64,000 nt of DNA from an uncultured Candidatus Saccharibacteria bacterium (GTDB lineage Bacteria > Patescibacteriota > Saccharimonadia > Saccharimonadales > JACDBH01), in assembly GCA_964644965.1 (NCBI GenBank), contig CAZXYN010000002.1, forward strand, positions 67,075 to 131,074. The letters are read 5' to 3'. Position 1 is the first letter of the stretch. Every line of letters begins with the position of its first letter. The position numbers and the translations under genes are program-made. Below, in pieces: positions 1 to 52,994 of this stretch. A model generated the notes under the pieces. The model ran no database searches. It had not been told where the DNA came from and worked only from the letters and a program-made list of their open reading frames with translations.

Positions 1-730
1 CTTGTTCGTGGAGCTTTACGATTTGAGCTAGCGAAATACCATCAACGTAATCTTGCACGATGACATTATCGGTGCATAAATCGGTATAAGTTTTCGGTAC
101 ATGAATAATTGGGTGGTCCTTGTAACGTTCGTACATCTGGGTGGCGAATTCTGCCTCTTGTTTGTAATCAGTTTCTTTCAATGTTGCGGCGGTAAAATCT
201 TTGAGCGCGTCATTTAGATCTACATTCATGTTCTTGTAGAGCTTGGCAAAAAAAGTTTTCGAAAATCGCACCAATAGCTTTATGTCATGTCGCAGCATTT
301 CGCGAACCAACGGGCGCAACACCTTTACTATTACCGTCTCGCCAGTCTTGAGCTGGGCGTAGTAGACCTGGCCAAAACTACCAGCTGCAAACGGCTCTGG
401 CTGAATAAGGGCAATTTGCTGGAGTTTGTCCTGTGGCAATTCTTGTTGCAGTAGTGCACCAATGTTTACCGGCTCGTGTTCTAGATTTTCGAATATTTTA
501 AGCTTTTCTGGATTATGCCATTTGCGCATTACTTGTGAGCGTAGCAAAACACCCTGTAGGAACTTTACATAGACGCCACCAAGCGACATAAACTCTTCGC
601 AAATCAAGTTGTACATCTGTTCCTCTTGTTTTCGACGGTAGAGCAGATACGATTTGGTGATTAGCGCCGCTAGACGCTTAGTGCGAGCACGCTTCATGCT
701 CGCTATTGTTTTCTGCCTTGCTTTGTTCAC
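1..730 (-). CDS. ABC1/UbiB-family atypical protein kinase, N-terminal portion (C-terminus lies beyond the window start)
   Basis: Minus-strand frame is open to position 1. It is absent from the ORF track because the window edge truncates it. My translation from GTG 728-730 (AAGGA about 11 nt upstream; alternative ATG 695-697) reads ...EPFAAGSFGQVYYAQLKTGETVIVKVLRP...ETDYKQEAEF..., matching the ABC1 glycine loop, VKVxRP and DYxxEA motifs. Confidence 0.75.
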   Translation of the reverse strand, partial: MNKARQKTIASMKRARTKRLAALITKSYLLYRRKQEEQMYNLICEEFMSLGGVYVKFLQGVLLRSQVMRKWHNPEKLKIFENLEHEPVNIGALLQQELPQDKLQQIALIQPEPFAAGSFGQVYYAQLKTGETVIVKVLRPLVREMLRHDIKLLVRFSKTFFAKLYKNMNVDLNDALKDFTAATLKETDYKQEAEFATQMYERYKDHPIIHVPKTYTDLCTDNVIVQDYVDGISLAQIVKLHEQ

Positions 731-747
731 CTAGGAAATCCTTTGGC

Positions 748-906
748 CTATTTCTTCGCAAATCCTATCAAAAACAAGACAACGGTACTGACCATTACTG
801 CAAGATAGAGTTGAAAGATCTCGTTAGTGTCATCGCGGGTCAGTGCCATGAGCAGCACTGCAACCCAGATGAATAATATAGTGAAGAAGATTGACATATA
901 CTTCAT
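748..906 (-). CDS. small hydrophobic protein (52 aa), function unknown
   Basis: My translation is MKYMSIFFTILFIWVAVLLMALTRDDTNEIFQLYLAVMVSTVVLFLIGFAKK, with two hydrophobic stretches. It is below the ORF-track size cut-off and sits directly upstream of the ABC1 gene on the same strand. Confidence 0.3.
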   Translation of the reverse strand: MKYMSIFFTILFIWVAVLLMALTRDDTNEIFQLYLAVMVSTVVLFLIGFAKK

Positions 907-981
907 AATTAGTTAATTTTATCATATTTTGCTAAAATACGCCATAGCTAGCACCAAAAAACGTCGTTCTGTCAAATTGCG

Positions 982-1167
982 TTGCCGTATCTGTTATTTT
1001 TCGGTATAATAGCCTAGCATTGGTTTATTTTTTGCCAAAAGACCAAACCAAGTCGCCGAGGCGACTGTTTGGGATTTTGAGAGGAGACGGCTGGATGCGT
1101 TTGCTTCTGTTAGTCAGCAAACTTGTTTTGTGACTAACTTGGCAAACGAATCCTTACACGTCGACGA
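982..1167 (+). promoter_or_regulatory. sigma70-like promoter plus conserved structured leader of the tRNA-Pro unit
   Basis: TTGCCG (982-987), 17 nt, TATAAT (1005-1010). The leader has three parts: ACCAAACCAAG-hairpin-TGTTTGGGATTTTGAGAGGAGA (about 1041-1090), a hairpin with loop GCAAACTTGTTTTG (about 1109-1139), and CACGTCGACGAC abutting the tRNA. The same modules occur upstream of tRNA-His and tRNA-Arg(TCT). Confidence 0.55.
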
Positions 1168-1244
1168 CGGGGTGTGGCGCAGTTGGCTAGCGCGCGCGGT
1201 TTGGGACCGTGAGGTCGAAGGTTCGAGTCCTTTCACCCCGACCA
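1168..1244 (+). tRNA. tRNA-Pro (anticodon TGG)
   Basis: Cloverleaf by eye: acceptor CGGGGTG/CACCCCG, D-arm GCGC-AGTTGGCTA-GCGC, anticodon loop TTTGGGA, T-arm GAAGG-TTCGAGT-CCTTT, encoded ACCA. Coordinates cross-checked against ORF 1209..1445, which reads through it. Confidence 0.9.
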
Positions 1245-1252
1245 ATCAAAGA

Positions 1253-1277
1253 GTCCGGCTTTATGCCGGGCTTTTTG
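1253..1277 (+). terminator. intrinsic terminator after tRNA-Pro
   Basis: CCGGC-TTTAT-GCCGG hairpin followed by GCTTTTT. Confidence 0.6.
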
Positions 1278-1404
1278 ATTGGATATGGTAGAGGGCTCGA
1301 ACCGATAGGCATAAATGTCCAGTGGACATTTATGTTTTCCTTGCTTGGCCGAGAAAATGATTTATCACTTTTCGAGCAACTAGTTCGAGTCCTTTCACCC
1401 CGAC
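1278..1404 (+). repeat. tRNA-flanking element P, ending in a 22-nt copy of the tRNA-Pro T-loop-to-acceptor end
   Basis: 1383-1404 (GTTCGAGTCCTTTCACCCCGAC) is identical to 1221-1242 inside tRNA-Pro. The body holds an inverted T-loop box (GGTTCGAGCC on the minus strand). It also holds the core TCGAACCGATAGGC-hairpin-GTTTTCCTTGCTTGGCCG (1297-1351), which is shared with the element at 23448-23502. Confidence 0.7.
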
Positions 1405-1422
1405 ATAAAATAAGTCAAATAA

Positions 1423-1587
1423 CACTTCTTAAGGCAAGACCTTGAGATTTCGAAGTGCTGCAGATGTTACGGGTACACCCTACGCAACTGGGACAAGGAC
1501 GGTACACTTAAGCTTATACGCATAGGTAAGCGTAAGATACGGCGTTGGAAGAAGCCTGACGTGATTAAGCTTCTTGAAGGCAATTAG
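1423..1587 (+). pseudogene. excisionase/AlpA-like (HTH_17-type) DNA-binding protein remnant without a canonical start codon
   Basis: The frame opens after TAA 1420-1422. My translation is HFLRQDLEISKCCRCYGYTLRNWDKDGTLKLIRIGKRKIRRWKKPDVIKLLEGN*. The TLRNW..G.L..IRIG.R.IR......V..LL pattern resembles Xis/AlpA HTH proteins. No ATG, GTG or TTG is present in frame. It sits immediately after the tRNA-Pro end repeat. Confidence 0.35.
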
Positions 1588-1821
1588 TAACACTTGAAGT
1601 ATAGAAAAATTACGGTGTAAATAGTACAATCGTGATAAGCGTTTAACGCCTAGACCTAAACCAAGCAATTGGCATGGTTGATAAATCCATAGAGAAATAA
1701 AAGCTCGTCATGAGTCGCTATTTCTCTATGGTCGGTACTGGAAACGGTATCGGGTAGCTTCGGCTATCGCTCGTGGCGGGCTTTTTATATAGCATCACAA
1801 CTACCTGAAAGGAGATAAGGC

Positions 1822-2376
1822 GTGCAAGCATTAAGGTCAATCGGGAGCACTCTACTGGGTATTGTTATTTTCGTCGGAATTATTATTGCAACAGTTTTGC
1901 TGTTTACTCTAGGTGCTAGATTAGCATTTACTATTCAGCCATTTATCAACTGGCTTGCTGGCGTTCTGTTTATCATAAATATTGTAGCGTTGATTGTGGC
2001 AATAGCGCCAAAAGCAAGGGGCTGGTCTGGTCTGATAATCTACATTTCATCTTATGTATATGGACTAGGAACATGGATTTTCGGTTTAGCGGTTACTCTG
2101 GCGCTCTGGGGCTGGATAGCAGTTATCATTGGTCTTCTTTTGGGTGGTGTCGGTGTTGTACCTATCGGCATGTTGGCCGCAATACTCAACGGAGAGTGGG
2201 GGATATTCTGGACGTTGTTCATAAGTCTAGCTCTGACTTATGGGGCACGTCTAATAGGCACGCTACTAGTGTCCAGTGCTGAAAACCAGCCACATTATGA
2301 TGGAGACGATGTTAGTGATGATGTTATTGACATAGAACCAGGAACACATAAACGAACATGGAAGGACATTGAGTAA
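1822..2376 (+). CDS. multi-pass membrane protein, unknown function; C-terminus ends KRTWKDIE
   Basis: ORF track, 184 aa. GTG start with GGAGA about 9 nt upstream. About 5 hydrophobic helices and an acidic tail. Confidence 0.65.
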   Translation: MQALRSIGSTLLGIVIFVGIIIATVLLFTLGARLAFTIQPFINWLAGVLFIINIVALIVAIAPKARGWSGLIIYISSYVYGLGTWIFGLAVTLALWGWIAVIIGLLLGGVGVVPIGMLAAILNGEWGIFWTLFISLALTYGARLIGTLLVSSAENQPHYDGDDVSDDVIDIEPGTHKRTWKDIE

Positions 2377-2675
2377 TGACCAAAGAAGCTGACGAGAAAC
2401 ATACGCATAACCAAAACAATGCAGAGTCGCCTAAATCAAGCGTTAGTTCTTTTATTCATGTAGCTGGCTTTGCGGGTGGTTTTTTAATTGGTTTTAGGCT
2501 ATTAAATAACTTAATCATTGGGATAGTTCTTGGAATAATTGGAGGAATTATTACCTCCGGAATTTGGGCATTGTTTACTGATAAAGCAGAGAATGGTACG
2601 AAAAAGCATGACGCCGAAAAAGAAACAATAAGCGAGGGTGAAAGTCAAAGACGAACGTGGAAGGACGTTGAATAA
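2376..2675 (+). CDS. small membrane protein, unknown function; C-terminus ends RRTWKDVE
   Basis: ORF track, 99 aa. Its ATG overlaps the upstream stop (TAATG). Glycine-rich TM pair. Confidence 0.6.
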   Translation: MTKEADEKHTHNQNNAESPKSSVSSFIHVAGFAGGFLIGFRLLNNLIIGIVLGIIGGIITSGIWALFTDKAENGTKKHDAEKETISEGESQRRTWKDVE

Positions 2676-2676
2676 T

Positions 2677-3894
2677 ATGGACATGCCACATACAAAGTTA
2701 CGCCAAAAGTATATTGACGAAATCAAGGTTATTGAGGCGAATATCAAAGATATAGCTAGTGGTGAAGCACCGCAAGCATTGTATGAACACTCACAAAATA
2801 AGCTGGATAAGTTAGCAGAGCATTTTCAGTACGATGAACAGCTCGGAACCGCTAGGTACAAGCTCTATGAACTGCAAGCACTCTTGTATTACTTCCAGAA
2901 CAGAGATGATGACGCATTGGCATTTATACTGCAAGCCGTTGAAATCAAAGGCTCCTCATATAAACGGGCCGAACAACTCATAGCACAGATAGATTCAGCT
3001 CCGGCGGAGAGCCATAACTGGGATAATTATCTGGACCACAATGAAACACCGGCAATAACTAGAGCGAATAGTAACCAGAGGGTCGTATTTTTTCATAAAT
3101 CACCATTAACGGTGGCGTTACTATCATTCATTTCACTCGGGTTATATTCCATATATTGGTCGTATAAACACTGGAAGATTATTCAAGACAGCAAGGGCAA
3201 TAAGCCAGCCTATACAGGTTGGTGGCATTGGGGAGGTAAGTTTAGTGAAAACAAAAGAACATACCCAGTTTGGGCTGCTATTTTCCAGTTATTCTCAATC
3301 TACCCCCTCTTTAAATTGATAAAAATTACGGCTCAAGAGAGTGGCTATGAAAAATTTCGTAAGACGAAGTTTACTGCAACTGGCTACATTATTTTATCCG
3401 CTGCCGTCAACGCTACATGGAGAGCAGAACCAAAGACTACCACTGATTTTGTAACATTTATAATATTCATGGTTCTAATGGGAGCATGTATAGCAGTAAT
3501 ACTGGCTATTGTACAACGTGCAGCGAATGCGCAAAACATATCTGTGCTTGGTAAGCGGCACAAGTTCAAGAGTGTGTTTGTGGGTGAAGTAATCTTTACC
3601 ATTATTGCAGTTGGTTTCAGTGTGTTGGCCATTATTGGTACATACAGCTCAGTCGGCACGGTAGGTTACGAAGGTTTAAGTAACGAAGCAATGGGTGCAT
3701 ATCAGAGAATGGAATCGTTGCGAAGCCAGTATAACGCATGTAGTAGCGACTTGGACGCAAGGCGTGATAACGTTAATATTTATAGCGATTATGAGGTTGA
3801 TTCCTTTAATAGCGACCTGGAAGATTGTGAGAACACAAGACTTAGATTGAACAGCACAGTAGATGAATACAACAGACTTGCGGGGTATGAGTAA
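2677..3894 (+). CDS. membrane protein with helical N-terminal domain and DUF4234-like GLYSIYW transmembrane region
   Basis: ORF track 2638..3894. I prefer the internal ATG at 2677 (MDMPHTK...), just after the upstream stop. Motif LSFISLGLYSIYWSYKHWKII plus further TM helices and an acidic C-terminal domain. Confidence 0.6.
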   Translation: MDMPHTKLRQKYIDEIKVIEANIKDIASGEAPQALYEHSQNKLDKLAEHFQYDEQLGTARYKLYELQALLYYFQNRDDDALAFILQAVEIKGSSYKRAEQLIAQIDSAPAESHNWDNYLDHNETPAITRANSNQRVVFFHKSPLTVALLSFISLGLYSIYWSYKHWKIIQDSKGNKPAYTGWWHWGGKFSENKRTYPVWAAIFQLFSIYPLFKLIKITAQESGYEKFRKTKFTATGYIILSAAVNATWRAEPKTTTDFVTFIIFMVLMGACIAVILAIVQRAANAQNISVLGKRHKFKSVFVGEVIFTIIAVGFSVLAIIGTYSSVGTVGYEGLSNEAMGAYQRMESLRSQYNACSSDLDARRDNVNIYSDYEVDSFNSDLEDCENTRLRLNSTVDEYNRLAGYE

Positions 3895-3910
3895 AGTAAA
3901 GGACTTTTAG

Positions 3911-4417
3911 ATGGAACGACCAAAACAATTTAGAGACCCACAACTTGAGACTTCAGGAGAGATTATTGGATTCTATCCGAGGGAGTTCTATACATTTGAT
4001 AATTTTGCTGCTTTCCAAGTAGATTACATGGATTTTCGGTGGCCTACTTCTGAGCACGCTTATCATGCAGCGAAGTTTATTGATACTGCTCCTGAAGTTG
4101 TTGAGATGTTAAAAGAAGCACGATCCCCTCACGATGCACTAGCTATTGCGACTGAACACAAACCTAGACGTGCAGAAGATTGGGACGAACGCAAAGTCGC
4201 AGTAATGTATGAGATATGTCGTCTAAAGCTAGTTCAGAATGTTTATGTGCTTCAGAAGCTAGAGTTAAGCGGAGACCTAGATATAGTTGAAGACTCGCCT
4301 AAAGATGATTTTTGGGGTTGGGGACCAAACCGTGATGGCAGAAATGAACTAGGGAAAATCTGGATGCGACTTCGGGAAGAACTTAGGTCTGGCTTAATAG
4401 AGACAAATACGGAATAG
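3911..4417 (+). CDS. NADAR (DUF1768/YbiA-like) family protein
   Basis: ORF track, 168 aa. FYTFDNFAAFQVDYMDFRWPTSEHAYHAAKF and DDFWGWG...G.N.LG..LM match the NADAR signature. Confidence 0.8.
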   Translation: MERPKQFRDPQLETSGEIIGFYPREFYTFDNFAAFQVDYMDFRWPTSEHAYHAAKFIDTAPEVVEMLKEARSPHDALAIATEHKPRRAEDWDERKVAVMYEICRLKLVQNVYVLQKLELSGDLDIVEDSPKDDFWGWGPNRDGRNELGKIWMRLREELRSGLIETNTE

Positions 4418-4575
4418 TTTACTCATAGCACAAGGTTTTCGACTTGAGCCTCTCTGCGTTTTGAGTTACAAGCATTCCTGAGTTCATTAAGTACACTAAC
4501 AGCTTGAGAGTAGTCTTCAAATAGACTATTAAGCAGTTCGTGTAGGGTATGTTCGATCCGACCAAACTTAGCCAC

Positions 4576-5217
4576 CTATTTCTTACGAGTTGCGAAGAAT
4601 ATAGCTACAAAGCTTATGATTAACGCAGCACCTGCAACATAGATTGCGATATCTGCCATTTGACTATCGTCTTCTGCTGCCATCTCCTCGTTACCATCGT
4701 GACTATCGGTTGACGCACCTTCAACAACATTTGTAACGGAGAGAGGTCCCGTATTCTCGCCTGCTCCATGGCTATCACCGCTAGATGCCTGATCCCAGGC
4801 AACAACTGTGCCATCAGAGTATGTTTGATAGGCTTTCCATTCTATCTCGCCAGGAACGTCTGGAGCCTTTGCACTGAACGTAAAGTCATCACGCAGCCCA
4901 TCTGCTATCTCACCATCGCTCCATGTAATTGACGTGACCTGTGCTGTCTCGCCTTCGCCAGATTTTTCGGTTGCGATTGTCCAGCCTGGTTTAACGGTTG
5001 GCTTAACACTCGTTACCGCTTCGGGAATCAGTAGCTTGATGGCCGTAGTCGGTACTTCCTTTTCGTTCGGTACACTCACTATAAAAGTCTGGTAGCTGGC
5101 TGTTGCTACCTCTGCTGGCTTCACGGTTACGTGTGCAGCAACGGTTGCGCTGAACAGAGAAACAAATACCCCAGTTATTGCTAATATTGATAGAAATTGC
5201 TTTAAAACTCTCATCAA
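4576..5217 (-). CDS. YcnI-family (DUF1775) copper-binding protein, membrane anchored
   Basis: ORF track, 213 aa. Signal peptide ends ...VAAH, giving mature N-terminus HVTVKPAEV.... Contains ..PGWT... and a C-terminal TM helix plus KK, typical of YcnI. Confidence 0.8.
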   Translation of the reverse strand: MMRVLKQFLSILAITGVFVSLFSATVAAHVTVKPAEVATASYQTFIVSVPNEKEVPTTAIKLLIPEAVTSVKPTVKPGWTIATEKSGEGETAQVTSITWSDGEIADGLRDDFTFSAKAPDVPGEIEWKAYQTYSDGTVVAWDQASSGDSHGAGENTGPLSVTNVVEGASTDSHDGNEEMAAEDDSQMADIAIYVAGAALIISFVAIFFATRKK

Positions 5218-5247
5218 ATCCCCTTATTTTTTACCAGTCTAACATAC

Positions 5248-5775
5248 TTATTGCCGGCTGTAGGTGGCTATCTTGTGACGGTAATTAAAGCCGACAATTG
5301 CTACCATCACAAGCCCGCTCAATGCCGCAACTAGCCCTAATTCAGCCCATGCATAGCGATTTGAAGCTTGCGAAGCTACAGCAGTAACGCCACGAGATAC
5401 ACGTTGACTAGATTCGAAATTGTATGATGCAGAGGATGTCTTAATTTGTAGCTTCAGTCGATAGACGCCTTGGGTAGGGAAAGCATAGTTGGTACTCATA
5501 TAGCTGTCGTTTGTTTCTAGATTTACTATAGTTAGCTCGTCGCTGCTGTTTGTAATAGTGAGTATCGCCTCATAATCAGAATCATCAAGCGAATCTATCT
5601 GCACATCGTAGAACAAGTTACTCTCTTCGCCGGCTATAGGATCATCATCTGGCATGACGTGTAGGATTGCTCCGTACTGGCCAGTCGTGTCGGTGACGAG
5701 AATATGGGCTGATACCTTGGTCGGTAGGGCTACCCAGCCGAGTAGCAACAGAATTCCTAAAATCAACTTATTCAT
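5248..5775 (-). CDS. secreted, C-terminally anchored protein with predicted mature N-terminal His (CopC-like candidate)
   Basis: ORF track, 175 aa. Signal peptide ...KVSAH then ILVTDTTG. Beta-rich body and a C-terminal TM helix. Operonic between the ferric-reductase-like gene and ycnI. The CopC-like reading is inference. Confidence 0.55.
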   Translation of the reverse strand: MNKLILGILLLLGWVALPTKVSAHILVTDTTGQYGAILHVMPDDDPIAGEESNLFYDVQIDSLDDSDYEAILTITNSSDELTIVNLETNDSYMSTNYAFPTQGVYRLKLQIKTSSASYNFESSQRVSRGVTAVASQASNRYAWAELGLVAALSGLVMVAIVGFNYRHKIATYSRQ

Positions 5776-6559
5776 TAGTCACCTCACTGACATAATCGGC
5801 GTCATGTAGATGAACAGAATGATAATTTACAAACAGTAGAGGGATTGCCAGCACAGCCAGTGTCCAAACAATCCACATACTCATAATGATGGTCACTGCT
5901 TCTGGCTTAGAGAATAGCTGCTTTTTGTCATTGATAATTCTTATGACGCGGTGAGACTCTAACCCTGCAAGTAGTGATAGAGCAAACAACCCAACTAGCT
6001 GAATATTTGTATAGGCTACGTGGGTACCAATAGTCCAGATGTGAAGTATTACCAGAATAAACCCGATGTAGCCTAGCCTATGCAGCCACTTCCACTTGCG
6101 GAATGTCATGAACGAAATTACCTTGTTAAACGAAGTAGCCGCCATCATTAGCAGTATGATAATTCCCACCAGCCCACCTGCCAGCGACCATTTGAACAAA
6201 TCTGGTAACCTACCGAGCTCACCAGGGCCACCCAACTGACCCCAAAGTGAAATGATTAGGTGTAGCACTGCAAAATAGGCCGCCGACACTCCAATTGCCC
6301 GGCGTGCAAAAGTTATATGGGTAAGCTTTTCTTTACCAACAATGTAGCCCAGTGGTGAGATTAGTAGTGCTACATACCAGTAGCTCAGGGCTAATATGCC
6401 CATTATCTGCTGAGAACGAATATAAAACAGCTGGTCAGCTGGGATTATCAGCCGCATACCTGAGACAACGAGCAGACTCACCAGAACCGAAACGCACAAG
6501 ATATAAAAGCGCGAATTATTCAGCAAATTCGATATAGTTTCGTGTTTATGCTTAACCAT
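5768..6559 (-). CDS. ferric-reductase-like transmembrane (YedZ/MsrQ-type heme b) protein
   Basis: ORF track, 263 aa. Six TM helices with conserved His positions (RRAIGVSAAYFAVLHLI; WKWLHRLGYIGFILVILHIW). Overlaps the downstream gene by 8 nt. Confidence 0.55.
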   Translation of the reverse strand: MVKHKHETISNLLNNSRFYILCVSVLVSLLVVSGMRLIIPADQLFYIRSQQIMGILALSYWYVALLISPLGYIVGKEKLTHITFARRAIGVSAAYFAVLHLIISLWGQLGGPGELGRLPDLFKWSLAGGLVGIIILLMMAATSFNKVISFMTFRKWKWLHRLGYIGFILVILHIWTIGTHVAYTNIQLVGLFALSLLAGLESHRVIRIINDKKQLFSKPEAVTIIMSMWIVWTLAVLAIPLLFVNYHSVHLHDADYVSEVTNE

Positions 6560-6585
6560 TTCAACTCATTATATAGGACATAGCT

Positions 6586-7266
6586 TTGTTTGGGGTTTAC
6601 GACTCGTCTATAATACTGTTTATGGTTCAAGCACTCTTGGCGGCAATCGTCATCGCCGCAATCCTCGGTCTTTCTGAGGTTGCCTGGAAAAAGGCGCATA
6701 TTCAAGGCGAGCTAGCTCGAAAGTTCGTACATATTACTACTGGTGTTTTCATCGCTTTCCTGCCATTTTGGGTAGATTACAACTGGATTATGGCGCTAGC
6801 GGTGGGCTTTGTTGTAGCTAATCTAGTCAACAGATATGTCGACTTTTTTCATGCCATTCATGCCGTACGCCGCAAGAGCTGGGGTGATGTTTTGTTCGGA
6901 GTCGGCGTGTTCGCGGTCGCTTGGTTTCAGCCCAACCCGTGGGTGTTCGCGGTCGCTATTCTACAAGTTAGCCTAGCCGATGGTCTTGCGGCTATAGCTG
7001 GTGTGACATATGGCAAAGAACACGGCAAATATTATCTATTCACTCAGCCAAAGTCTATTATCGGTAGTAGCGTATTTCTGGTCGTATCAGCATTAATACT
7101 AATATTCGGAATGGTTGCCAGTAGCTATTTTGTCGATCCCGCGCAGATGTGGCCAGTAATAGTTATGTTGCCATTGATGCTTGTATGCGTAGAAAACCTG
7201 GCTGTATTTGGATTTGATAATTTGGCTTTGCCGCTGGCGACATTGGCGGTACTCAGTCTGTTATAA
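6586..7266 (+). CDS. polyprenol/dolichol-kinase or CdsA-like cytidylyltransferase-family membrane protein
   Basis: ORF track, 226 aa (alternative start ATG 6622). RKFVHITTG...LADGLAAIAGVTYGK motif in a polytopic membrane protein. Confidence 0.5.
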   Translation: MFGVYDSSIILFMVQALLAAIVIAAILGLSEVAWKKAHIQGELARKFVHITTGVFIAFLPFWVDYNWIMALAVGFVVANLVNRYVDFFHAIHAVRRKSWGDVLFGVGVFAVAWFQPNPWVFAVAILQVSLADGLAAIAGVTYGKEHGKYYLFTQPKSIIGSSVFLVVSALILIFGMVASSYFVDPAQMWPVIVMLPLMLVCVENLAVFGFDNLALPLATLAVLSLL

Positions 7267-7293
7267 CCCCTGAAAATAGGCTATAATAACACT

Positions 7294-7830
7294 ATGCTCA
7301 AAAAAATAGAAAACAACCTGCGCGAGTTCGTGTATGGCGGTATGGACGGTGCAGTCACTACTTTTGCCGTTGTAACTGGCGCCGCCGGTGCCAACCTAGA
7401 TGTTAGCGTTATTCTAATACTTGGCTATGCCAACGTTCTGGCAGATGGTTTTTCTATGGCGGTCGGTTCGTACTTAAGCGAAAAGAGTGATCAAGACCTG
7501 CAGATTCACAGAGGCGAAGGCAAAAAGGGTGATTATGAATCACCTATGAAGGCATCAATTGCGACCTTTATATCATTCTTGCTAATAGGTTTCGTGCCGC
7601 TGCTTGTTTATACGTTTGATTTCATTTTTGAACTTGGCATGAGCAATGACACCATGCTGATGTATGCAGTTACGCTGACTCTAATCACCTTTGGTCTAAT
7701 CGGTCTATTGCGTGCTAGAATCACCAAGATCAAGAAGCGCACTGCTATTCTTGAGTCCTTTGGGCTCGGTGTTGCTGCTGCGGTTATTTCCTACGGCGCC
7801 GGCAGTATACTCGAACAAATTATTAACTAG
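7294..7830 (+). CDS. VIT1/CCC1-family iron/manganese transporter
   Basis: ORF track, 178 aa. EFVYGGMDGAVTTFAVVTGAAGA and ANVLADGFSMAVGSYLS motifs. Confidence 0.75.
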   Translation: MLKKIENNLREFVYGGMDGAVTTFAVVTGAAGANLDVSVILILGYANVLADGFSMAVGSYLSEKSDQDLQIHRGEGKKGDYESPMKASIATFISFLLIGFVPLLVYTFDFIFELGMSNDTMLMYAVTLTLITFGLIGLLRARITKIKKRTAILESFGLGVAAAVISYGAGSILEQIIN

Positions 7831-7839
7831 GCTCTCAAG

Positions 7840-8082
7840 TTAATTAGAAATCTTGGCAGTATTTTTGACTTTTTTGCGGGTATTTTGTGTGACAACGGGT
7901 TCAATCGGAACAATCAAAGCCACAATCAAGTAGACGATAATGGCAAGTCCAGTAGTCATAAAAGCAAGAATAATCAGCACTGCCCGTACGATGGTAGGGT
8001 CTATGCCTATGAATTTGGCGATGCCACCAGAAAGTCCAGTGAATATGCGGTTGCTACGGCTGCGGTATAGTTTTTTGACCAT
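7840..8082 (-). CDS. PspC-domain membrane protein
   Basis: ORF track 7840..8103; I prefer the internal start MVKKLYRS. LYRSRSNRIFTGLSGGIAKFIGIDPTIVRAVLIIL is a PspC domain. TTGACA-17-TATAAT promoter upstream on the minus strand. Confidence 0.75.
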   Translation of the reverse strand: MVKKLYRSRSNRIFTGLSGGIAKFIGIDPTIVRAVLIILAFMTTGLAIIVYLIVALIVPIEPVVTQNTRKKVKNTAKISN

Positions 8083-8251
8083 GCAATCAGTATACAATAT
8101 CAATTTGGGGTGAGTAGCATAACAGTGGTCAAGTAGTAGAATTTTGCCCCATAGGGAACAGCAGTTGTCTTTATTATAGCAAAAAGCTTATGTTTTGTCA
8201 ACGTATGAAAAATCTGAAATAAAAATGACCTCCGAAATAGGCCATTCATTG

Positions 8252-8406
8252 TATGGGGCGAGTGATGGGAATCGCCCACATTCTGCGGGCCCGAAACTTC
8301 ACGGTGTGAAACAAGTTTCACCCGGAAGGTTTCCTTGCGAAATGCCACAGGCATTTCTCACCCACGACCTTAGGCGTGGGTTCAAGTTCCATTGACCAGC
8401 CCATAA
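8252..8406 (-). repeat. tRNA-flanking element H, ending in a 23-nt copy of the tRNA-His 3' end
   Basis: 8252-8274 is identical to 8439-8461 (T-loop CGATT through CCA plus 2 nt). 8361-8371 repeats the tRNA-His variable/T-stem segment at 8464-8474. An ~86 nt hairpin-rich insert lies between these two pieces. An inverted, well-formed T-arm/acceptor/CCA-like end (GTGGG-TTCAAGT-TCCAT-TGACCAG-C-CCA) lies on the plus strand at about 8374-8403. Confidence 0.7.
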
Positions 8407-8429
8407 ACAAAAAACGACCCTTTGGGTCA
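8407..8429 (-). terminator. intrinsic terminator after tRNA-His
   Basis: Read on the minus strand: GACCC-AAA-GGGTC followed by TTTTTTG. Confidence 0.65.
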
Positions 8430-8440
8430 TTTCTTATTTA

Positions 8441-8518
8441 TGGGGCGAGTGATGGGAATCGAACCCACGACCTTCGGAACCACAACCCGACGCTCTAACC
8501 AACTGAGCTACACCCGCC
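8441..8518 (-). tRNA. tRNA-His (anticodon GTG) with encoded G-1 and CCA
   Basis: Reverse complement is G-GCGGGTG TA GCTC AGTTGGTTA GAGC G TCGGG TTGTGGT TCCGA AGGTC GTGGG TTCGATT CCCAT CACTCGC C CCA. Coordinates cross-checked against ORF 8434..8718. Confidence 0.9.
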
Positions 8519-8708
8519 TCGTCGGAACGTAATATTGTGGTTCCTGTATTGCCGACAAAACAAGTTTGCTCGGACAATACTAGAAACCTCAATAAGTTTC
8601 CTCCTCTTAAGTTTTCCAAACAGAACAAGTTCTTGGTTTGAAAAACTTGAAAAGCCCAAAAAGGGCAAGAACAGGGGTAATTATATCTGTTTGCGGTTGT
8701 TTTTGCAA
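8519..8708 (-). promoter_or_regulatory. promoter plus conserved structured leader of the tRNA-His unit
   Basis: On the minus strand: TTGCAA (8703-8708), 17 nt, TATAAT (8680-8685), then TACCCCTGTT. Leader modules are CAAACCAAG-hairpin-TGTTTGG..AAGAGGAGG (about 8598-8645), a hairpin with loop GCAAACTTGTTTTG (about 8545-8580), and TCCGACGA abutting the tRNA. Confidence 0.55.
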
Positions 8709-8822
8709 TGGGTGGCAAGGTAAACAGCTCATGGTAAACTTGTCAATGAAGGTGGTCACAGGCAATGATATTGCCGTTGTGTATACTGGAAGTAATCAGG
8801 CAATAAAGGAAAGTAGATACAA

Positions 8823-9374
8823 ATGGCAAAAAGATCAAATTCATCAGATAAATCAGTCCAAAAAATCTTCATGGTGCTGGCGGCAATTGTAGCTGCAGCA
8901 CTATTTGTGATTGGCGGGTTGGCACTGTGGGCGCATAACTTTACAACCAACATGGTGCGTACTGAGCTGGCGGCGCAAAAGATTTATTTTCCACAAGCCG
9001 GGGCGCCGAACTTTTTGCCAGAAGATTATCCAGAATTGCAGAAGTATGCTGGCCAGCTGGTAGACAACGGCGAAAAGGCAAAAGCCTATGCCAATGGCTA
9101 TATCGGTCGCCATCTGCATAACACGGCCGATGGCAAAACTTATGCGGAGGTCAGTACTCTGGCCAGGCAAAACCCGAATGACGAAACGCTGCAACAACAG
9201 AGAGAAAGCTTACTACAAGGAGAGACTTTGCGGGGTATTCTTCTTGGCACGGGGTATGCCTTTGGTACGATAGGCATGCTGGCGGGTATCGCGGCCTGGG
9301 TGTTGTTTGGTCTTGGTGCTGTGCTGGTGCTAGTAAGCATATTTTATGCCAAGCGTTACTACGGACGAGGCTAG
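8823..9374 (+). CDS. membrane protein, unknown function (N- and C-terminal TM helices)
   Basis: ORF track, 183 aa. AAGGAAAG upstream of the ATG. Confidence 0.55.
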   Translation: MAKRSNSSDKSVQKIFMVLAAIVAAALFVIGGLALWAHNFTTNMVRTELAAQKIYFPQAGAPNFLPEDYPELQKYAGQLVDNGEKAKAYANGYIGRHLHNTADGKTYAEVSTLARQNPNDETLQQQRESLLQGETLRGILLGTGYAFGTIGMLAGIAAWVLFGLGAVLVLVSIFYAKRYYGRG

Positions 9375-9975
9375 AGTAGTGACACTCAAAGGAATCACAT
9401 TAAAGCAGTCGCTGCCATACATCATGATTGCGGCTGGTGTGGTGGGCCTGTTAGCCTCGCTGATGCTGACGCATGACAAAATCCAGGTGCTGCAAAACCC
9501 AGATTATGATCCGTTCTGTAACATTAACCCGATATTTAGCTGTCGTTCGGTAATGGTAACCGAACAGGCAAGTCTGTTGGGGCTGCCTAACACGGTGTTT
9601 GGTGTCATAGGGTTTACAGCGCTGGTGACATTGGGGTTTTTGCTGGCTGCTGGCGCCCAAATAAAACGTTGGTTGTGGCTGGTTGTGCAACTGTCGGCTA
9701 CGGTTGGCGTAATATTTATGCACTATTTATTCTTCCAGGCAGTGTATAGAATCAATGCAATTTGCCTGTGGTGTTTTGCTACTTGGATAGTGGTGATCCC
9801 GGTGTTCTGGTACATCACACTTTATAACCTGCGCGAAGGGCATATCAGGCTAAAGAATGATAAAATTGCAACTTTTTTGCAAAAACACCACGGCAATATG
9901 TTGCTTGCCTGGTACGGTGTTATTTTTATGATTTTGCTGGTTGAGTTCTGGTATTACTGGGAGACTTTGATTTGA
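9346..9975 (+). CDS. vitamin K epoxide reductase (VKOR)-family protein
   Basis: ORF track, 209 aa (alternative starts GTG 9379 or ATG 9424). Loop cysteines CNINPIFSC and the CLWC redox motif in a 4-5 TM protein. Confidence 0.7.
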   Translation: MPSVTTDEARVVTLKGITLKQSLPYIMIAAGVVGLLASLMLTHDKIQVLQNPDYDPFCNINPIFSCRSVMVTEQASLLGLPNTVFGVIGFTALVTLGFLLAAGAQIKRWLWLVVQLSATVGVIFMHYLFFQAVYRINAICLWCFATWIVVIPVFWYITLYNLREGHIRLKNDKIATFLQKHHGNMLLAWYGVIFMILLVEFWYYWETLI

Positions 9976-10010
9976 AAATAAATATACCTGCTTTGTAAGC
10001 AGGTATATTT

Positions 10011-10169
10011 ATTGGTACCCCGGGAGGGAATTTGACTCACAAGTCAAAATGCTCTGCATTTTTGCTCGCGAGCCCGGCGCGGCGTGCATCGGGTGCCGAT
10101 GCACAGGCCTTACGCCTGTTCGATTCCCCGCAGGCCAAGCAGTTGGCCTGCTGTCTCTGGGTACCAATT
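10011..10169 (-). repeat. tRNA-flanking element R, ending in a 21-nt copy of the tRNA-Arg(TCT) 3' end
   Basis: 10011-10031 is identical to 10199-10219 (ATTCCCTCCCGGGGTACCA plus 2 nt, read on the minus strand). The GC-richer body has several hairpins (TGCATCG-GGTGC-CGATGCA; ACAGGC-CTTA-GCCTGT; CAGGCCAA-GCAG-TTGGCCTG). It also has an inverted T-loop box TGTTCGATTCC and a plus-strand ...GGGTACCA end. Confidence 0.7.
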
Positions 10170-10193
10170 CAAAAGCCCCACTTTCGTGAGGCT
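10170..10193 (-). terminator. intrinsic terminator after tRNA-Arg(TCT)
   Basis: Read on the minus strand: AGCCTCAC-GAAA-GTGGGGCT followed by TTTTG. Confidence 0.6.
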
Positions 10194-10200
10194 CATGAAT

Positions 10201-10277
10201 TGGTACCCCGGGAGGGAATCGAACCCCCGACCTGTGGGATAGAAGCCCATTGCTCTAATCCGCTGAGCTACCGGGGC
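10201..10277 (-). tRNA. tRNA-Arg (anticodon TCT)
   Basis: Reverse complement is GCCCCGG TA GCTC AGCGGATTA GAGC A ATGGG CTTCTAT CCCAC AGGTC GGGGG TTCGATT CCCTC CCGGGGT A CCA. Coordinates cross-checked against ORF 10032..10292. Confidence 0.9.
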
Positions 10278-10461
10278 GTCGTCGAAGTGTGATGGTGAGA
10301 TAATCCTAGTAGCGACAAAAAATTTGCTCACTACTAGTAATTATCTCACTAAGCCTTCTCCTCTCAAAACCCCAAACAGCAGCCAGCTGCTTGGTTTGGT
10401 GTTTTGTGCAAGAACATTCCTTAACAGGGGTGATTATACCATGTTATAACTGTTATTGTAA
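10278..10461 (-). promoter_or_regulatory. promoter plus conserved structured leader of the tRNA-Arg(TCT) unit
   Basis: On the minus strand: TTACAA (10456-10461), 17 nt, TGGTATAAT (-10 at 10433-10438), then CACCCCTGTT. Leader modules are ACCAAACCAAG-hairpin-TGTTTGGGGTTTTGAGAGGAGA (about 10353-10402), a long hairpin with loop GCAAATTTTTTG (about 10295-10349), and CACTTCGACGAC abutting the tRNA. Confidence 0.55.
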
Positions 10462-10500
10462 GCACAAACGTGATACGCTGGGGTAACAAGAGGGAATTTT

Positions 10501-11802
10501 ATGGAAGAAAATCAGCCAACGCCACCACAATTTGTGAAGCCAGAGACAAAGCAAGTAGAGGTAGAAAAGGTACCTGATGCGCCTCTGCCATCAGAGCCAG
10601 ACACACCGCCTAAGAAACCAAAATCTAAGAAAAAGCTACTAATCATCATTGGAATAGTAGTGGCAGTGCTACTAACTGCAGGCGCACTTTGGTACTTTTT
10701 GATCCGTGACAGCGGGCAGACCGCAGAAACCAGCCAGGAACAACAAGTAGCAGAAGTCACTGAGCGAGAGTACGAAGGGCTACCAGATACCGTTGCCTAT
10801 GCTTACCGCGACATCGACTCTGAGCCGTACAAAATCTACACTCGTCCTGCCGTATCGGGCGAAAGAGCAGAAGCAATGACGCTTCCAGCAGGTGTGTATA
10901 TATCTCACAGTGCTGTACATGGCAACCAAGTAGTGTTCGTGACTGAGCCTGAAGCTGCTACTGATGAAGTACTAACAATCTGGTACAGTGACGATGCTGG
11001 TGCTTCGTACAGAGAGATTTACAAGGATGAAGCGATCACAGCAGAAGACAGTATTGGCACACAAGTAACTAGCATTATATTTTCGACAGACGGTAGTGTA
11101 GTTTTGGCGGGAATATTACCTGCTGACGGTGGCAATCAAGTTACCGAACTATCTTTAGATGGTTTAAATCAACAGAAGGTTATATTTACGACTGACGACA
11201 GGGGTGTTGCCTTAGAAGGTTACGACCGTGCCAACCAAAAGACCCTGTACTTTTCTGGTTGCTACAACTGTGACGGAATTATTCACAAAACCCTGAATCT
11301 TTATGATGAATCATCAGACTCCACAGTTACTGTCTATGATTCGCCAGTCGTTCAGCTAAATGTGGCGGTAAAGGACGATTTTTCCAAAGTACTGATATCA
11401 GAGGGTACAAGTGATGAATCAACAGCAGATGAGCTCGGTGGTGGTTTAGCTGCGCCATATACCATCAAGACCATCGCAGTAGAGGAGGGTGCAGTGGCAG
11501 AGACCTTAACCCAAGTCGATGAGCTGGTGACTGAGGTTGGCTATACCTATGCTGATACAGGTTATTACGTAACTCAGCAGGAGATTATACGACTCAATGA
11601 CGCTACGCCGTCACTTGCTTATGAGACGGCTGGGATTATCATAAACAGCGGTGCGTACTTTGTTGGTGAAGATAGCGTTGTCGTAGCGGTTGGTGAGTTC
11701 TTTGACTTTGCACTAGACTATTTCAAGTCGGGTTCTGAAGCACCGGTAAATGTACTGCAAGGCGACGCCAATACTATAGTTTTCGGTGTTCCGATAAAGT
11801 AG
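10501..11802 (+). CDS. membrane-anchored extracytoplasmic protein, unknown function
   Basis: ORF track, 433 aa. Pro/Lys-rich N-terminus, one TM helix (LLIIIGIVVAVLLTAGALWYFLI), then a large beta-rich ectodomain. Confidence 0.6.
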   Translation: MEENQPTPPQFVKPETKQVEVEKVPDAPLPSEPDTPPKKPKSKKKLLIIIGIVVAVLLTAGALWYFLIRDSGQTAETSQEQQVAEVTEREYEGLPDTVAYAYRDIDSEPYKIYTRPAVSGERAEAMTLPAGVYISHSAVHGNQVVFVTEPEAATDEVLTIWYSDDAGASYREIYKDEAITAEDSIGTQVTSIIFSTDGSVVLAGILPADGGNQVTELSLDGLNQQKVIFTTDDRGVALEGYDRANQKTLYFSGCYNCDGIIHKTLNLYDESSDSTVTVYDSPVVQLNVAVKDDFSKVLISEGTSDESTADELGGGLAAPYTIKTIAVEEGAVAETLTQVDELVTEVGYTYADTGYYVTQQEIIRLNDATPSLAYETAGIIINSGAYFVGEDSVVVAVGEFFDFALDYFKSGSEAPVNVLQGDANTIVFGVPIK

Positions 11803-11885
11803 GCAAGATTACTAAACAGCCAAAAAACCGAGGCAAGCTCGGTTCTCTGGTTGGTGCGGCATAGTATTGCAGGTTAGAACTTTAT

Positions 11886-12290
11886 TTATTGCTCACGTTC
11901 CAAGTATTTAATTTCAACTAATGGCATGGTCGTATAAATTGAATCAGGATCAAAATCAATACCTTTACGAGGTAGCCCATATATATTGACGCAACGTCCG
12001 GTCATAATTTCCTTATCAGGATTACCCTGTCTCCGAACAATGACTTCCGTGGATGGTAGGCGATATTCCCCGTAGTAGGGCTGTGTTTCCGATAGTCTTG
12101 TCACCAAACTAGGTCCTTCTTTAGAGGGTTCGACAACGTAACAAGCGCCGCTTTCAGTTCTAAGCATGAGCGCCAACAAATTACGATTACCTCGCCAATC
12201 GGATAATCGTTCAGTGCTAGCACCGTCAATCTGCAAGCGGTGTATTAAACTAGTCAGTTCTTGTTCGACCATATTCTCAAATCCAAGCAT
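11886..12290 (-). CDS. hypothetical protein
   Basis: ORF track, 134 aa. It starts 9 nt downstream of tRNA-Gly on the same strand. I recognise no family. Confidence 0.5.
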   Translation of the reverse strand: MLGFENMVEQELTSLIHRLQIDGASTERLSDWRGNRNLLALMLRTESGACYVVEPSKEGPSLVTRLSETQPYYGEYRLPSTEVIVRRQGNPDKEIMTGRCVNIYGLPRKGIDFDPDSIYTTMPLVEIKYLEREQ

Positions 12291-12299
12291 TAATCTATT

Positions 12300-12374
12300 T
12301 GGTGCGGGTGGGGGGAATCGAACCCCCGTCTCAAGTTTGGAAAACTTGCATACTAACCGTTGTACTACACCCGC
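12300..12374 (-). tRNA. tRNA-Gly (anticodon TCC)
   Basis: Reverse complement is GCGGGTG TA GTAC AACGGTTA GTAT G CAAGT TTTCCAA ACTTG AGAC GGGGG TTCGATT CCCCC CACCCGC A CCA. Coordinates cross-checked against ORF 12166..12378. Confidence 0.9.
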
Positions 12375-12500
12375 ATAAAGTCTGAATTGTTAAAGGGTTC
12401 GATTCCGAATCGACTCACCTTCGGCGAGCCCCGAACTTCTGCTTTACAAGCATAGCTTGCAAGTGAAGATTCGTTTCCGACTGCTTTTGAGCAGTTCTCA
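12375..12500 (-). repeat. tRNA-flanking element G (body), between a tRNA-Gly 5' pseudo-copy and the intact tRNA-Gly
   Basis: Read on the minus strand it starts TGAGAAC directly after the pseudo T-stem. It contains GAAGTTCGGGGCTCGCCGAAGG and the palindrome TCGATTC-G-GAATCGA. The T-loop box GGTTCGATTCC is on the plus strand. Confidence 0.6.
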
Positions 12501-12552
12501 CCCCGTCTCAAGTCTCCGAAAACTTGCATACTAACCGTTGTGCTACACCCGC
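12501..12552 (-). pseudogene. tRNA-Gly-like 5' fragment (acceptor to T-stem 5' strand) with an 8-nt anticodon loop
   Basis: Reverse complement is GCGGGTGTAGCACAACGGTTAGTATGCAAGTTTTCGGAGACTTGAGACGGGG. It differs from tRNA-Gly only by one D-stem change (GTAC to GCAC, which breaks a pair) and the loop TTTCCAA to TTTCGGAG. Homology stops exactly at the T-loop. An extended -10 (TGATATAAT, 12577-12582) lies upstream. Confidence 0.65.
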
Positions 12553-12650
12553 GATAAATCCTTGGCAACAGGGGTAATTATATCACTTTAAGGTAATAAG
12601 TAAAACAGCCCCGCTAAAGTTTGCCGAGGCTGTTGCGACCAGTTTTTTAT

Positions 12651-23640: not shown

Positions 23641-23988
23641 TTATATGCTATTTAACTGATTTTTCCTTTTGTGCGTCCTGAACCTATGGCAGTTAGCGCA
23701 AACAAGCTCGCATTTCTTGATCTCTTCTTGTACCTGCCTAAAACTACCATTATTTATGAGTCGACTTATGGTGTTTATCTTCTCACCGGTACCTGTGTGG
23801 TCAAAATCTGTAACATACGAAGGGTACTGTACACCACAATCCGTACAAGCAGTAGAGTTTTTTAGCTCATAAACCCATTCCCGAACTGACTCACGTTTTT
23901 TGTAGGCTTTATTTATGTAATATTCTCGGTTTGCGTAATAGTGCTTGCGTATAGCCTCTCGCTGTTTTTCCTTATCTTTCCATGCCAT
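23641..23988 (-). CDS. HNH endonuclease-family protein
   Basis: ORF track, 115 aa. CTDCG...DFDH...CANCHRFRTH is an HNH/zinc-finger pattern. Its stop lies 10 nt from tRNA-Arg(TCG). Confidence 0.7.
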   Translation of the reverse strand: MAWKDKEKQREAIRKHYYANREYYINKAYKKRESVREWVYELKNSTACTDCGVQYPSYVTDFDHTGTGEKINTISRLINNGSFRQVQEEIKKCELVCANCHRFRTHKRKNQLNSI

Positions 23989-52430: not shown

Positions 52431-52832
52431 GGGGCTGTTTAGCTCGACATTTGGACATTTACAAGTTGGTATAAGCAGGCCGGTAGTCTGAACGTTATCC
52501 GGACAAACCTTCTAACTGCAAACGCATTAGATCGCGTACAAGCTATGTTCAATGACGCCTTTGGTATCAAAGAACGTGCTTTCGCAACAGCTGCCTAATT
52601 TTAGTGTAGCGACTGTTAGTTCGACATCAGATAGAACAAATCAGTCTCATATTTTTCTGATTGCTTAAATATTACGACCCGTAATGTTTACTAAGACTTA
52701 TAGGGTTGCAGCGATGGAATTTTTTGTTGATTTCTATCTTTCATAGCTAAAGAAACCAAGCAAATCAAATAAGCCTGTAGAAACCCAGCAAGTAACCGAA
52801 TGGACGCGGCTTCATCGCCGCCAGCTCCACCA
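52431..52832 (+). ncRNA. ssrA: tmRNA (SsrA)
   Basis: 5' GGGGCTG... pairs with 3' CAGCTCC-A-CCA. T-arm GCGGC-TTCATC-GCCGC. The tag reading frame 52518-52598 encodes ANALDRVQAMFNDAFGIKERAFATAA*. Promoter TTGCAT (52368-52373), 17 nt, TACAAT (52391-52396). Coordinates cross-checked against ORF 52800..53519. Confidence 0.85.
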
Positions 52833-52994
52833 AGTCACAATGTACAAAAGAGGTCACGTGTAGTTTTGCATCTAAATAGCAAAACTTCTAGTGACCTCTT
52901 TTTGCTTGCTCCTTTACCCCAAGCTGAATCCTCTCAGCTTGGGGACCCCATCACCCTAAGCAAAGCTTGGGGCTTTTTTCTTTTATTGTTTGTT

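Follow-up and report, generated by a model that had tools for sequence, protein, structure and literature searches.

A conserved folded leader abutting tRNA and tmRNA genes in Saccharibacteria looks like a new RNA family with a putative link to tRNA 5' processing

The 5' leaders of bacterial transfer RNAs (tRNAs) are normally short, unconserved and discarded, which raises the question of what is encoded ahead of three tRNA genes in a 64,000-nucleotide stretch of an uncultured Candidatus Saccharibacteria genome (assembly GCA_964644965.1, contig CAZXYN010000002.1, positions 67,075 to 131,074; hereafter the window). An earlier reading of the sequence alone had proposed that a structured leader of about 150 nucleotides (nt) is shared by the tRNA-Pro, tRNA-His and tRNA-Arg(TCT) units, and all three copies are found where it placed them (Table 1). 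Together, ARAGORN and Rfam identify seven tRNA genes and one transfer-messenger RNA (tmRNA) gene in the window; three of the seven tRNA genes carry the leader, and inspection of the upstream sequences found none on tRNA-Gly(TCC), tRNA-Arg(TCG), tRNA-Lys(CTT) or tRNA-Glu(TTC). A search of the window for CAAACCAAG-N(6-24)-TGTTTGG finds the core of the element, CAAACCAAG-hairpin-(C)TGTTTGG, at exactly three places, one in each leader, with none expected by chance (100 shuffles of the window). It is followed on its 3' side by AGAGGAG in all three copies, and each copy closes, as had been claimed, with CGACGA at the edge of the mature tRNA, the gap to its first nucleotide (+1) being 0 nt in the Pro unit, 1 nt in the His unit (G-1) and 1 nt in the Arg unit. 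On the evidence set out below, we conclude with high confidence that the leader belongs to a lineage-specific (Saccharibacteria/Saccharimonadia) family of structured RNA modules that form the 5' leader of about half of the tRNA precursors and of some tmRNA precursors; it looks like a new RNA family, with a putative function linked to tRNA 5' processing.

The sequence-only reading had been unable to assign the leader to any known family, and the possibility that it is part of a described RNA found no support in Rfam 15: searched at the gathering threshold, the whole window and 24 homologous loci return tRNA, tmRNA and LOOT RNA only, leaving the leader unmatched, and with expectation values (E) up to 10 there is no credible match on the leaders in positions 900-1900 and 8300-12700. 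Likewise, no description of the element was found in the literature on tRNA leaders, ribonuclease P (RNase P) and LOOT RNA in Saccharibacteria/Patescibacteria. A scan of one genome per species (185,579 species) with the pattern CAAACCAAG-N(4-20)-TGTTTGG-N(4-10)-AGAGGAG returned 60 loci, of which 59 come from 44 assemblies and one is a chance match inside an Aliiglaciecola coding region. These 44 assemblies are labelled Saccharibacteria, Saccharimonadales or Saccharimonadia, together with a few metagenome-assembled genomes from soil labelled Limnocylindria, Nanoarchaeia or 'bacterium', which bear the same leader-tRNA units. The identical pattern matched 80 metagenome contigs. Viral contigs, scanned with a looser core pattern as a negative control, gave 26 matches, none of them backed by the covariance model or ARAGORN and none beside a tRNA, and megablast of window positions 1-12000 against a phage collection gave no match. 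A covariance model built from 27 homologues finds 73 copies in the window and genome loci and 74-75 in the metagenome loci (ca. 147 in total), and scores the three window copies at 117-128 bits (E ~1e-27 to 1e-29). Also significant is the observation that, when the window is compared by blastn with all the loci retrieved, similarity is detected only at the level of the tRNAs, with no near relative for synteny; the homologous loci are therefore distant homologues and not duplicates, which disposes of the suggestion that the motif might exist only as recent segmental copies. The claim that this is a genuine, conserved and structured leader is supported.

The leader is approximately 120-150 nt in size, is folded and ends exactly where the mature tRNA starts. 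From a short, unstructured 5' end it proceeds through a first helical domain (P1), the purine box A-GAGGAG, a second helical domain (P2) and the sequence YGACGA, after which follows tRNA +1. In P1, an outer stem rich in A and U, which covaries, is followed by the invariant helix CAAAC/GUUUG with its bulged CA, by an AG/CU step and by a variable stem (core layout CAAAC-CA-AG...CU-GUUUG) that is tipped by a stable tetraloop of the CUUG, GNRA or UUUA type, and P2 consists of a covarying basal stem of 4-5 base pairs and a variable arm. The three window copies alone support 50 predicted pairs, 23 of which show compensatory changes, and in an alignment of 27 copies with the class A form of P2 described below, compensatory (double) changes are found in 31 of the 44 pairs. 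In the same alignment 91.6% of cells are paired, versus 35-48% with slid partners, and the covariation score is 0.533 versus 0.07-0.13 in the slid controls, a value reached by none of 500 shuffles. The strand can also be read, as G.U pairs outnumber A.C pairs (55 versus 20, p = 6e-5) and the leader strand folds on average 6.9 kcal/mol better than its reverse complement, being the better of the two in 90% of copies. The excess of G.U pairs and the asymmetry of folding indicate that the selected molecule is an RNA of the tRNA-sense strand.

P2 is variable: the segment from the base of the domain to CGACGA spans from about 24 to about 84 nt and the arm falls into at least three classes. Class A, to which the window copies belong, measures about 82 nt from the P2 base to the end of CGACGA and has the apex CAAAC-UUG-UUUUG; class B measures about 68 nt over the same interval and is recognised by GGUCGAAGCUUUUG...CAAAACGAGAC; beside these there are other classes and short forms with a total leader length of only 74-77 nt (L006, L100, L141). 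The P2 loop sequence described earlier as common to the three leaders is indeed present in the window copies, with a 2-nt deletion in the Arg copy. The boxA-like character proposed for it does not survive, however: the sequence forms a base-paired A-U stem capped by CUUG, which is swapped for other sequences in classes B and C and is missing from the short forms. Because P2 differs among the classes, what was taken for a conserved loop is the stable hairpin tip of one class.

The purine box AGAGGAG, earlier taken for a Shine-Dalgarno sequence, is not a ribosome-binding site; it is one strand of a helix at the base of P2. Across this base GAGGAG faces CGACGA in the order G-C, A.G, G.A, G-C, A.G, G.A, and RNAalifold on its own pairs both G-C pairs of this GA helix, so that the leader helix lies flush to the first pair of the acceptor stem. 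CGACGA was outside the search pattern, and yet C, G, A, C, G and A occupy positions -6 to -1, in this order, in 74-90% of the 104 tRNAs that carry a leader; at -3 to -1, where these have CGA, leaderless tRNAs have TAT or TAC. A tally of leaderless tRNAs over these three positions (loci L001-L166) gives T in 72/114, A in 65/114 and T or C in 90/114. Position 2 of the purine box covaries with the last base of the leader (G.A 118, A-U 5, G.U 8 and G-C 4, with G.G 4, A.C 2 and A.A 1 running counter to the trend; Fisher p ~9e-6, uncorrected for phylogeny). In fact, all sequence-conserved parts of the leader cluster at the three-way junction formed by P1, P2 and the acceptor stem. By comparison only, this junction looks like a nicked kink turn (k-turn) or k-junction, motifs in which tandem sheared G.A pairs lie next to a Watson-Crick helix and which are bound by L7Ae-family proteins. 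The leader resembles them in that, at its three-way junction, G.A/A.G pairs directly adjoin a regular helix, the acceptor stem, and differs in that its bulged strand is nicked, with the tRNA 3' NCCA in place of the 3-nt bulge, and in having two tandem-GA units. Conservation of the facing purines and covariation between positions 54 and 145 are seen in the sequences, and the bulged strand is discontinuous; a k-turn-type geometry, and any protein partner of the leader, can only be conjectured by this analogy.

Approximately 106 of the ca. 147 covariance-model matches abut +1 of a same-strand tRNA (55 in the window and genome loci and 51 in the metagenome loci), with a distance of 0 in 46 of 52 cases in the genome-loci subset, and in two metagenome contigs (L087, L113) the leader abuts +1 of a tmRNA, so that the upstream RNA directly adjoins a tRNA-type RNase P substrate in both settings. 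Of the remainder, about 22 copies have, between themselves and an intact tRNA, the 5' fragment of a tRNA plus a 70-200-nt insert or a short spacer, a few are cut by contig ends and ten are inverted. The leader is found on at least 25 different anticodons, and the same isoacceptor may have it in one genome and lack it in another (with versus without: Asp 3/3, Met 7/4, Gly-CCC 4/3). In the sampled loci, 55 tRNAs bear the leader and 53 more stand in units of their own, about 5-20 nt after a TATAAT box that is often followed by CACCCCTGTT, a sample that is biased to leader-containing loci. Some leaders lie about 8-20 nt 3' of an upstream tRNA and have no promoter of their own, and proximity to a promoter is therefore not essential.

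The ten inverted copies lie on the opposite strand and abut the complement of the 3' end of a tRNA or tmRNA, usually between two tRNAs of one strand, in the order tRNA_A, inverted leader, 6-66 nt, forward leader, tRNA_B (seen in L092, L136, L059 and L123). They may be transcribed antisense to the tRNA or solely within its 3' trailer. They end in GACGU, the last base being the complement of A76, and where this base is thus forced to be U, the facing position of the box is often A, giving an A-U pair. In the leader orientation they fold better than their complements in 8/10 cases, and they retain the orientation-specific motifs. The window holds one such divergent member, in which a P1 hairpin with a GAGAGGATTC loop, AAAGGAG, a P2 apex of GUUUUGC/GCAAAAC and UGACUU can be recognised, and its final base faces that of the + strand tmRNA gene. 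A + strand terminator is situated 3' of this element, which suggests that the primary transcript of the tmRNA would include the complement of the inverted element. A long processing stem for RNase III of the rRNA type, formed between a forward leader and its inverted neighbour, was considered and rejected, as the copies in L092 differ in P2 class and pair weakly.

The conservation, structure, strand and exact abutment of the leader are observed directly. The reading to which we give most weight, tentatively and at less than even confidence, is that the leader is itself the selected product, with the tRNA as its 3'-end signal and RNase P freeing a compact RNA from many loci. According to this proposal RNase P would cut after GACGA, with the tRNA or tmRNA domain as the signal for forming the leader's 3' end; the released RNA of 120-140 nt would persist, as its 3' terminus would be buried in a helix and it has two stable hairpins; its many copies and tRNA promoters would make it abundant and a candidate protein-binding RNA; and any tRNA could serve as the signal, which would explain the differences between genomes in the leader-bearing tRNA. 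We favour a selected product because any tRNA suffices and the carrier tRNA changes between genomes, and because the last base of the leader is paired and copies lie beside antisense tRNAs. In fact, the inverted copies that abut antisense tRNAs cannot aid tRNA expression, and yet a tRNA-like fold would still follow them. Bacteria of the candidate phyla radiation (CPR), Saccharibacteria included, possess an RNase P RNA, often divergent and often without the CCA-binding motif (PMC8172020), and its presence is counted in favour of the RNase P model. A bolder form of the proposal, in which the leader would be a new abundant noncoding RNA or ribonucleoprotein scaffold in Saccharibacteria, any tRNA-shaped fold, perhaps even an antisense one, would provide the RNase P 3'-end signal and the GA-rich, k-junction-like platform would be the functional site, appears to us rather unlikely.

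Several observations weigh against a released leader RNA. About 22 well-kept copies, among them the top-scoring one (L037, 143 bits), precede a truncated tRNA fragment plus an insert, which would not make a normal RNase P site. For the inverted copies in L092 and L136 no promoter was seen by eye, and they may be transcribed only as their complement; moreover, the tRNA-like helix of the inverted copies begins 3-4 nt after GACG and is not flush. A helix extending as far as position -1 might be an obstacle to RNase P and not an advantage, accumulation of the leader is a prediction only, and the clustering of conserved nucleotides at the acceptor junction is no less compatible with a role in cis than with one in trans. 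In addition, P1 and AGAGGAG were part of the search pattern, and their invariance is in part a matter of ascertainment. RNase P cleavage after GACGA, stability of the leader and any role in trans are inferred.

The strongest competitor explains the same junction as a purely cis-acting module of the precursor tRNA, which would serve to recruit, position or gate RNase P (or some other factor), and/or whose 5' hairpins would shield the transcript from 5' decay, the excised leader being waste; we hold this to be possible without thinking it probable. It accounts well for the pattern of conservation, in which the lower helix of P1 with its bulge, the GA helix and GACGA cluster at the acceptor junction and the distal parts vary freely, for the exact abutment to +1 and for the presence of the leader on tmRNA, another RNase P substrate, and the A at -1 of leader-bearing tRNAs, where leaderless ones have U or C, suggests two modes of substrate presentation. 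It is less easily reconciled with isoacceptors that bear the leader in some genomes only, with the approximately half of tRNA units that manage with a leader of ca. 5-20 nt and similar promoters, with inverted copies that abut antisense tRNAs or tmRNA, where there is nothing to mature, and with the pairing of the last base, which a discarded leader would not need. An explanation at the DNA level, namely that the element is a mobile repeat tied to rearrangement of tRNA genes (for example, the end of an integrative or recombining cassette) and that its RNA fold is incidental, we consider improbable, despite the facts that in both orientations the element invariably faces the boundary of a tRNA gene, that some tRNAs are bracketed by inverted copies (tRNA-Tyr in L092), that it often lies beside tRNA fragments and a T-loop-associated insert (element X, below), and that the leaders L012 and L014, on different tRNAs of one genome, are about 88% identical (by eye). 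The strand-specific excess of G.U pairs and the asymmetry of folding point instead to RNA; the window copies are highly diverged, throughout P2, with helices kept by compensatory changes; promoters lie directly upstream of leaders; and the variable spacing within P1 is incompatible with a double-stranded DNA operator. By inspection, neither terminal inverted repeats nor target-site duplications nor a transposase were seen, and a repeat of the miniature inverted-repeat or insertion-sequence type, for which near-identical copies would be expected, was rejected on the missing repeats and duplications, on the divergence of the window copies and on the excess of G.U pairs.

The two remaining models, both rooted in the sequence-only reading, are essentially excluded. 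That the leader is a boxA/boxB-like signal for processive antitermination in stable-RNA operons is very unlikely: a hairpin followed by a conserved single-stranded box after a strong stable-RNA promoter has a superficial likeness to boxB-boxA, but no boxA-like sequence (GCUCUUUAACAA-like) follows the hairpin, the candidate loop is the paired and replaceable cap described above, and the purine box is better explained as a strand of the GA helix. Furthermore, the units are of about 230 nt and fully structured, leaving little to act on, and the element also stands between tRNAs and flush with +1, neither of which such a signal needs. The window, as searched with Rfam, contains no rRNA operon. A translated leader peptide or attenuator with AGAGGAG as its Shine-Dalgarno sequence had been prompted by the three window copies, in which a start codon 8 nt after the box is followed by an Arg codon, and is of all the models the one we find hardest to credit, since 47/73 homologues lack a start codon at 4-10 nt 3' of the box. 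Where start codons are present they are mostly TTG or GTG and lie within the P2 stem, and the open reading frames (ORFs), of 2-58 codons, are unconserved in sequence and in several cases extend into the tRNA. The peptide MRFL with a stop codon, as claimed for the His unit, is not encoded: TTG AGG TTT CTA GTA contains no stop, and the frame runs on for 52 codons into the tRNA. Thus, of the three functions first entertained, a boxA-like signal can be dropped, and a processing platform and a co-transcribed small RNA both remain live.

Among known RNA classes, a T-box riboswitch was rejected, there being no Rfam T-box match, the same core before at least 25 anticodons and a position upstream of tRNAs, not mRNAs; a T-box-like specifier in the variable P1 loop fared no better, as by eye a tRNA-matching codon is present only in the Pro copy (CCG) and not in the His and Arg copies. 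Small self-cleaving ribozymes (hammerhead, twister, pistol, hatchet, hepatitis delta virus-like) gave no Rfam match at E up to 10, and for the hammerhead the order of the junction strands is also unfitting (by inspection). A closer relation can be drawn to the eukaryotic MALAT1-mascRNA and MEN-beta systems, in which a noncoding RNA obtains its 3' end through RNase P cleavage at a downstream tRNA-like structure. As there, a structured RNA abuts a tRNA-type fold and the predicted RNase P-generated 3' end lies in a protective helix, but the partner of the leader is a real and needed tRNA or tmRNA, the setting is bacterial and multi-copy, and the 3' end would be protected by a tandem-GA helix and not by a triple helix. 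Small RNAs derived from the spacers of tRNA precursors, such as 3'ETS-leuZ in Escherichia coli, are single, species-specific and weakly structured; the leader, like them, would be left over from tRNA maturation and may be functional in its own right, and differs in being a 5' family, conserved in sequence and structure, on many tRNAs and in at least 44 assemblies, each the GTDB representative of its species. With the boxB-boxA-boxC leaders of rrn operons it has in common that a structured, conserved stable-RNA leader lies downstream of strong promoters, whereas here there is no boxA, the element runs directly up to the mature 5' end and it occurs in short monocistronic units and between tRNAs. 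Stabilising elements of the STAB-SD (cryIIIA) type are Shine-Dalgarno-like sequences near the 5' end that stabilise an RNA without translation, and the leader likewise has a GGAG box near its 5' end with no conserved ORF after it; in the leader, however, covariation links the box to the 3' end and the box is probably paired, so that it would not be free for 16S rRNA. None of MALAT1-mascRNA, the spacer-derived small RNAs, the rrn leaders or the k-junctions fits as a family to which the leader could be said to belong.

Table 1. Positions of the leaders and associated features in the window.
Feature	Position	Strand	Details
Promoter-like site, tRNA-Pro unit	982..1010	+	TTGCCG-17-TATAAT
tRNA-Pro leader	1017..1167	+	covariance-model match 1030-1167, 127.9 bits
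tRNA-Pro leader, P1 and box		+	P1 ~1036-1079 (core 1044-1072); AGAGGAG 1080-1086
tRNA-Pro leader, P2 and 3' end		+	P2 1086-1162 (apex 1115-1132); CGACGA 1162-1167
tRNA-Pro(TGG)	1168..1244	+	+1 directly 3' of the leader's final A
Promoter-like site, tRNA-His unit	8680..8708	-	TTGCAA-17-TATAAT, then TACCCCTGTT
tRNA-His leader	8519..8672	-	covariance-model match 8519-8654, 117 bits
tRNA-His leader, parts		-	P1 core 8640-8616; AGAGGAG 8607-8601; P2 apex 8571-8555
tRNA-His leader, 3' end		-	CGACGA 8524-8519; His G-1 at 8518
tRNA-His(GTG)	8441..8517	-	
Promoter-like site, tRNA-Arg(TCT) unit	10433..10462	-	CTTACA-18-TATAAT, TG-extended, then CACCCCTGTT
tRNA-Arg(TCT) leader	10278..10432	-	covariance-model match 10279-10412, 124.5 bits
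tRNA-Arg(TCT) leader, parts		-	P1 core 10398-10372; AGAGGAG 10364-10358; CGACGA 10284-10279; 1-nt spacer C at 10278
tRNA-Arg(TCT)	10201..10277	-	
Divergent inverted family member	52832..52951	-	covariance-model match 32.5 bits, E ~4e-6
tmRNA gene	52431..52832	+	Rfam 67.8 bits; not reported by ARAGORN

Upstream of the leaders, the promoter spacing of 17 nt that had been claimed for each unit holds for the Pro and His units, and with the best -35 box it is 18 nt in the Arg unit; the common start segment claimed for the His, Arg and Gly units, TATAATnACCCCTGT, is present in all three. The tRNA promoters share the motif TATAAT-n-ACCCCTGTT, a C-rich discriminator and start region, which is seen in the window at 8670-8685, 10423-10438 and 12567-12582 (- strand) and also at tRNA promoters of many other Saccharibacteria genomes, those of leaderless tRNAs included. 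AACAG(A) is often found upstream, which creates an inverted repeat around the -10 box (partly by eye).

A second conserved element of ca. 95-130 nt, termed here element X, lies in the window at 12394-12502 (-) and 8265-8369 (-) and recurs in L014, L037, L056, L158, L157, L018, L125, L127, L050, L114, L027 and others, with 17 copies detected by nhmmer in about 1 Mb of Saccharibacteria loci. Its consensus, in which vertical boundaries are written here as slashes, is GG/UGAGAACUGCCAGUGGCAGUUCG..hairpin..GAAGUUCGGGG.CGC..GUGAC/CGAAUCC, and it has no Rfam match. Element X sits in the T-loop of partial tRNA copies, between T54 and C56, either in the order tRNA(1-54), X, -10-like box and intact tRNA (e.g. 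the window tRNA-Gly(TCC) unit) or in the order intact tRNA, terminator, X and tRNA(56-76)CCA (downstream of the window tRNA-His); possible identities are a mini integrative element and a structured RNA. In the tRNA-Gly(TCC) unit, an upstream pseudo-copy of the tRNA at 12501-12552 (-), transcribed from a TATAATTACCCCTGTT promoter, has an altered anticodon loop of 8 nt (UUUCGGAG) and lacks the 3' strand of the acceptor stem, and is followed by element X and then by the intact tRNA-Gly at 12300-12374. A sigma-70 promoter of perfect consensus (TTGACA-17-TATAAT with TG, 12/12 matches) lies at 8173-8201 (-), downstream of the tRNA-His fragment that contains element X (at a distance of about 60 nt) and upstream of a small ORF (7840-8103). 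Downstream of tRNA-Pro, tRNA debris can be discerned by eye at 1286-1305 and 1382-1404 (+), comprising a stretch resembling an antisense tRNA 3' end, TGGTAGAGGGCTCGAACC, and a direct repeat of the tRNA-Pro 3' end, GTTCGAGTCCTTTCACCCCGAC, the latter as expected from an element integrated into tRNA-Pro. A LOOT RNA (RF03000, 75.7 bits) is located at 1653-1768 (+), about 400 nt downstream of tRNA-Pro and just upstream of an ORF (1822-2376) with no Pfam match. Just upstream of tRNA-Arg(TCG), an ORF at ~23660-23900 (-) ends with an HNH-like motif, ..ELVCANCHR.. (by eye). Group I introns are frequent in the tRNA genes of Patescibacteria (PMC13011429).

Approximately half of the sampled tRNA units across a bacterial class bear one elaborate conserved fold, which is positioned with single-nucleotide precision at the RNase P site and is also found on tmRNA. 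Saccharibacteria are members of the CPR, with tiny genomes and divergent RNase P RNAs, and because CPR genomes are so small, the maintenance of at least ten copies of a 130-nt element implies that it has real selective value. The leader may represent a new level at which precursor-tRNA processing is controlled or its quality secured, or else a very abundant small RNA that has so far gone unseen, and its motif is a ready candidate for a new Rfam family. If the leader is indeed released as an RNA in its own right, it would be a bacterial counterpart of the logic by which MALAT1 and mascRNA are made.

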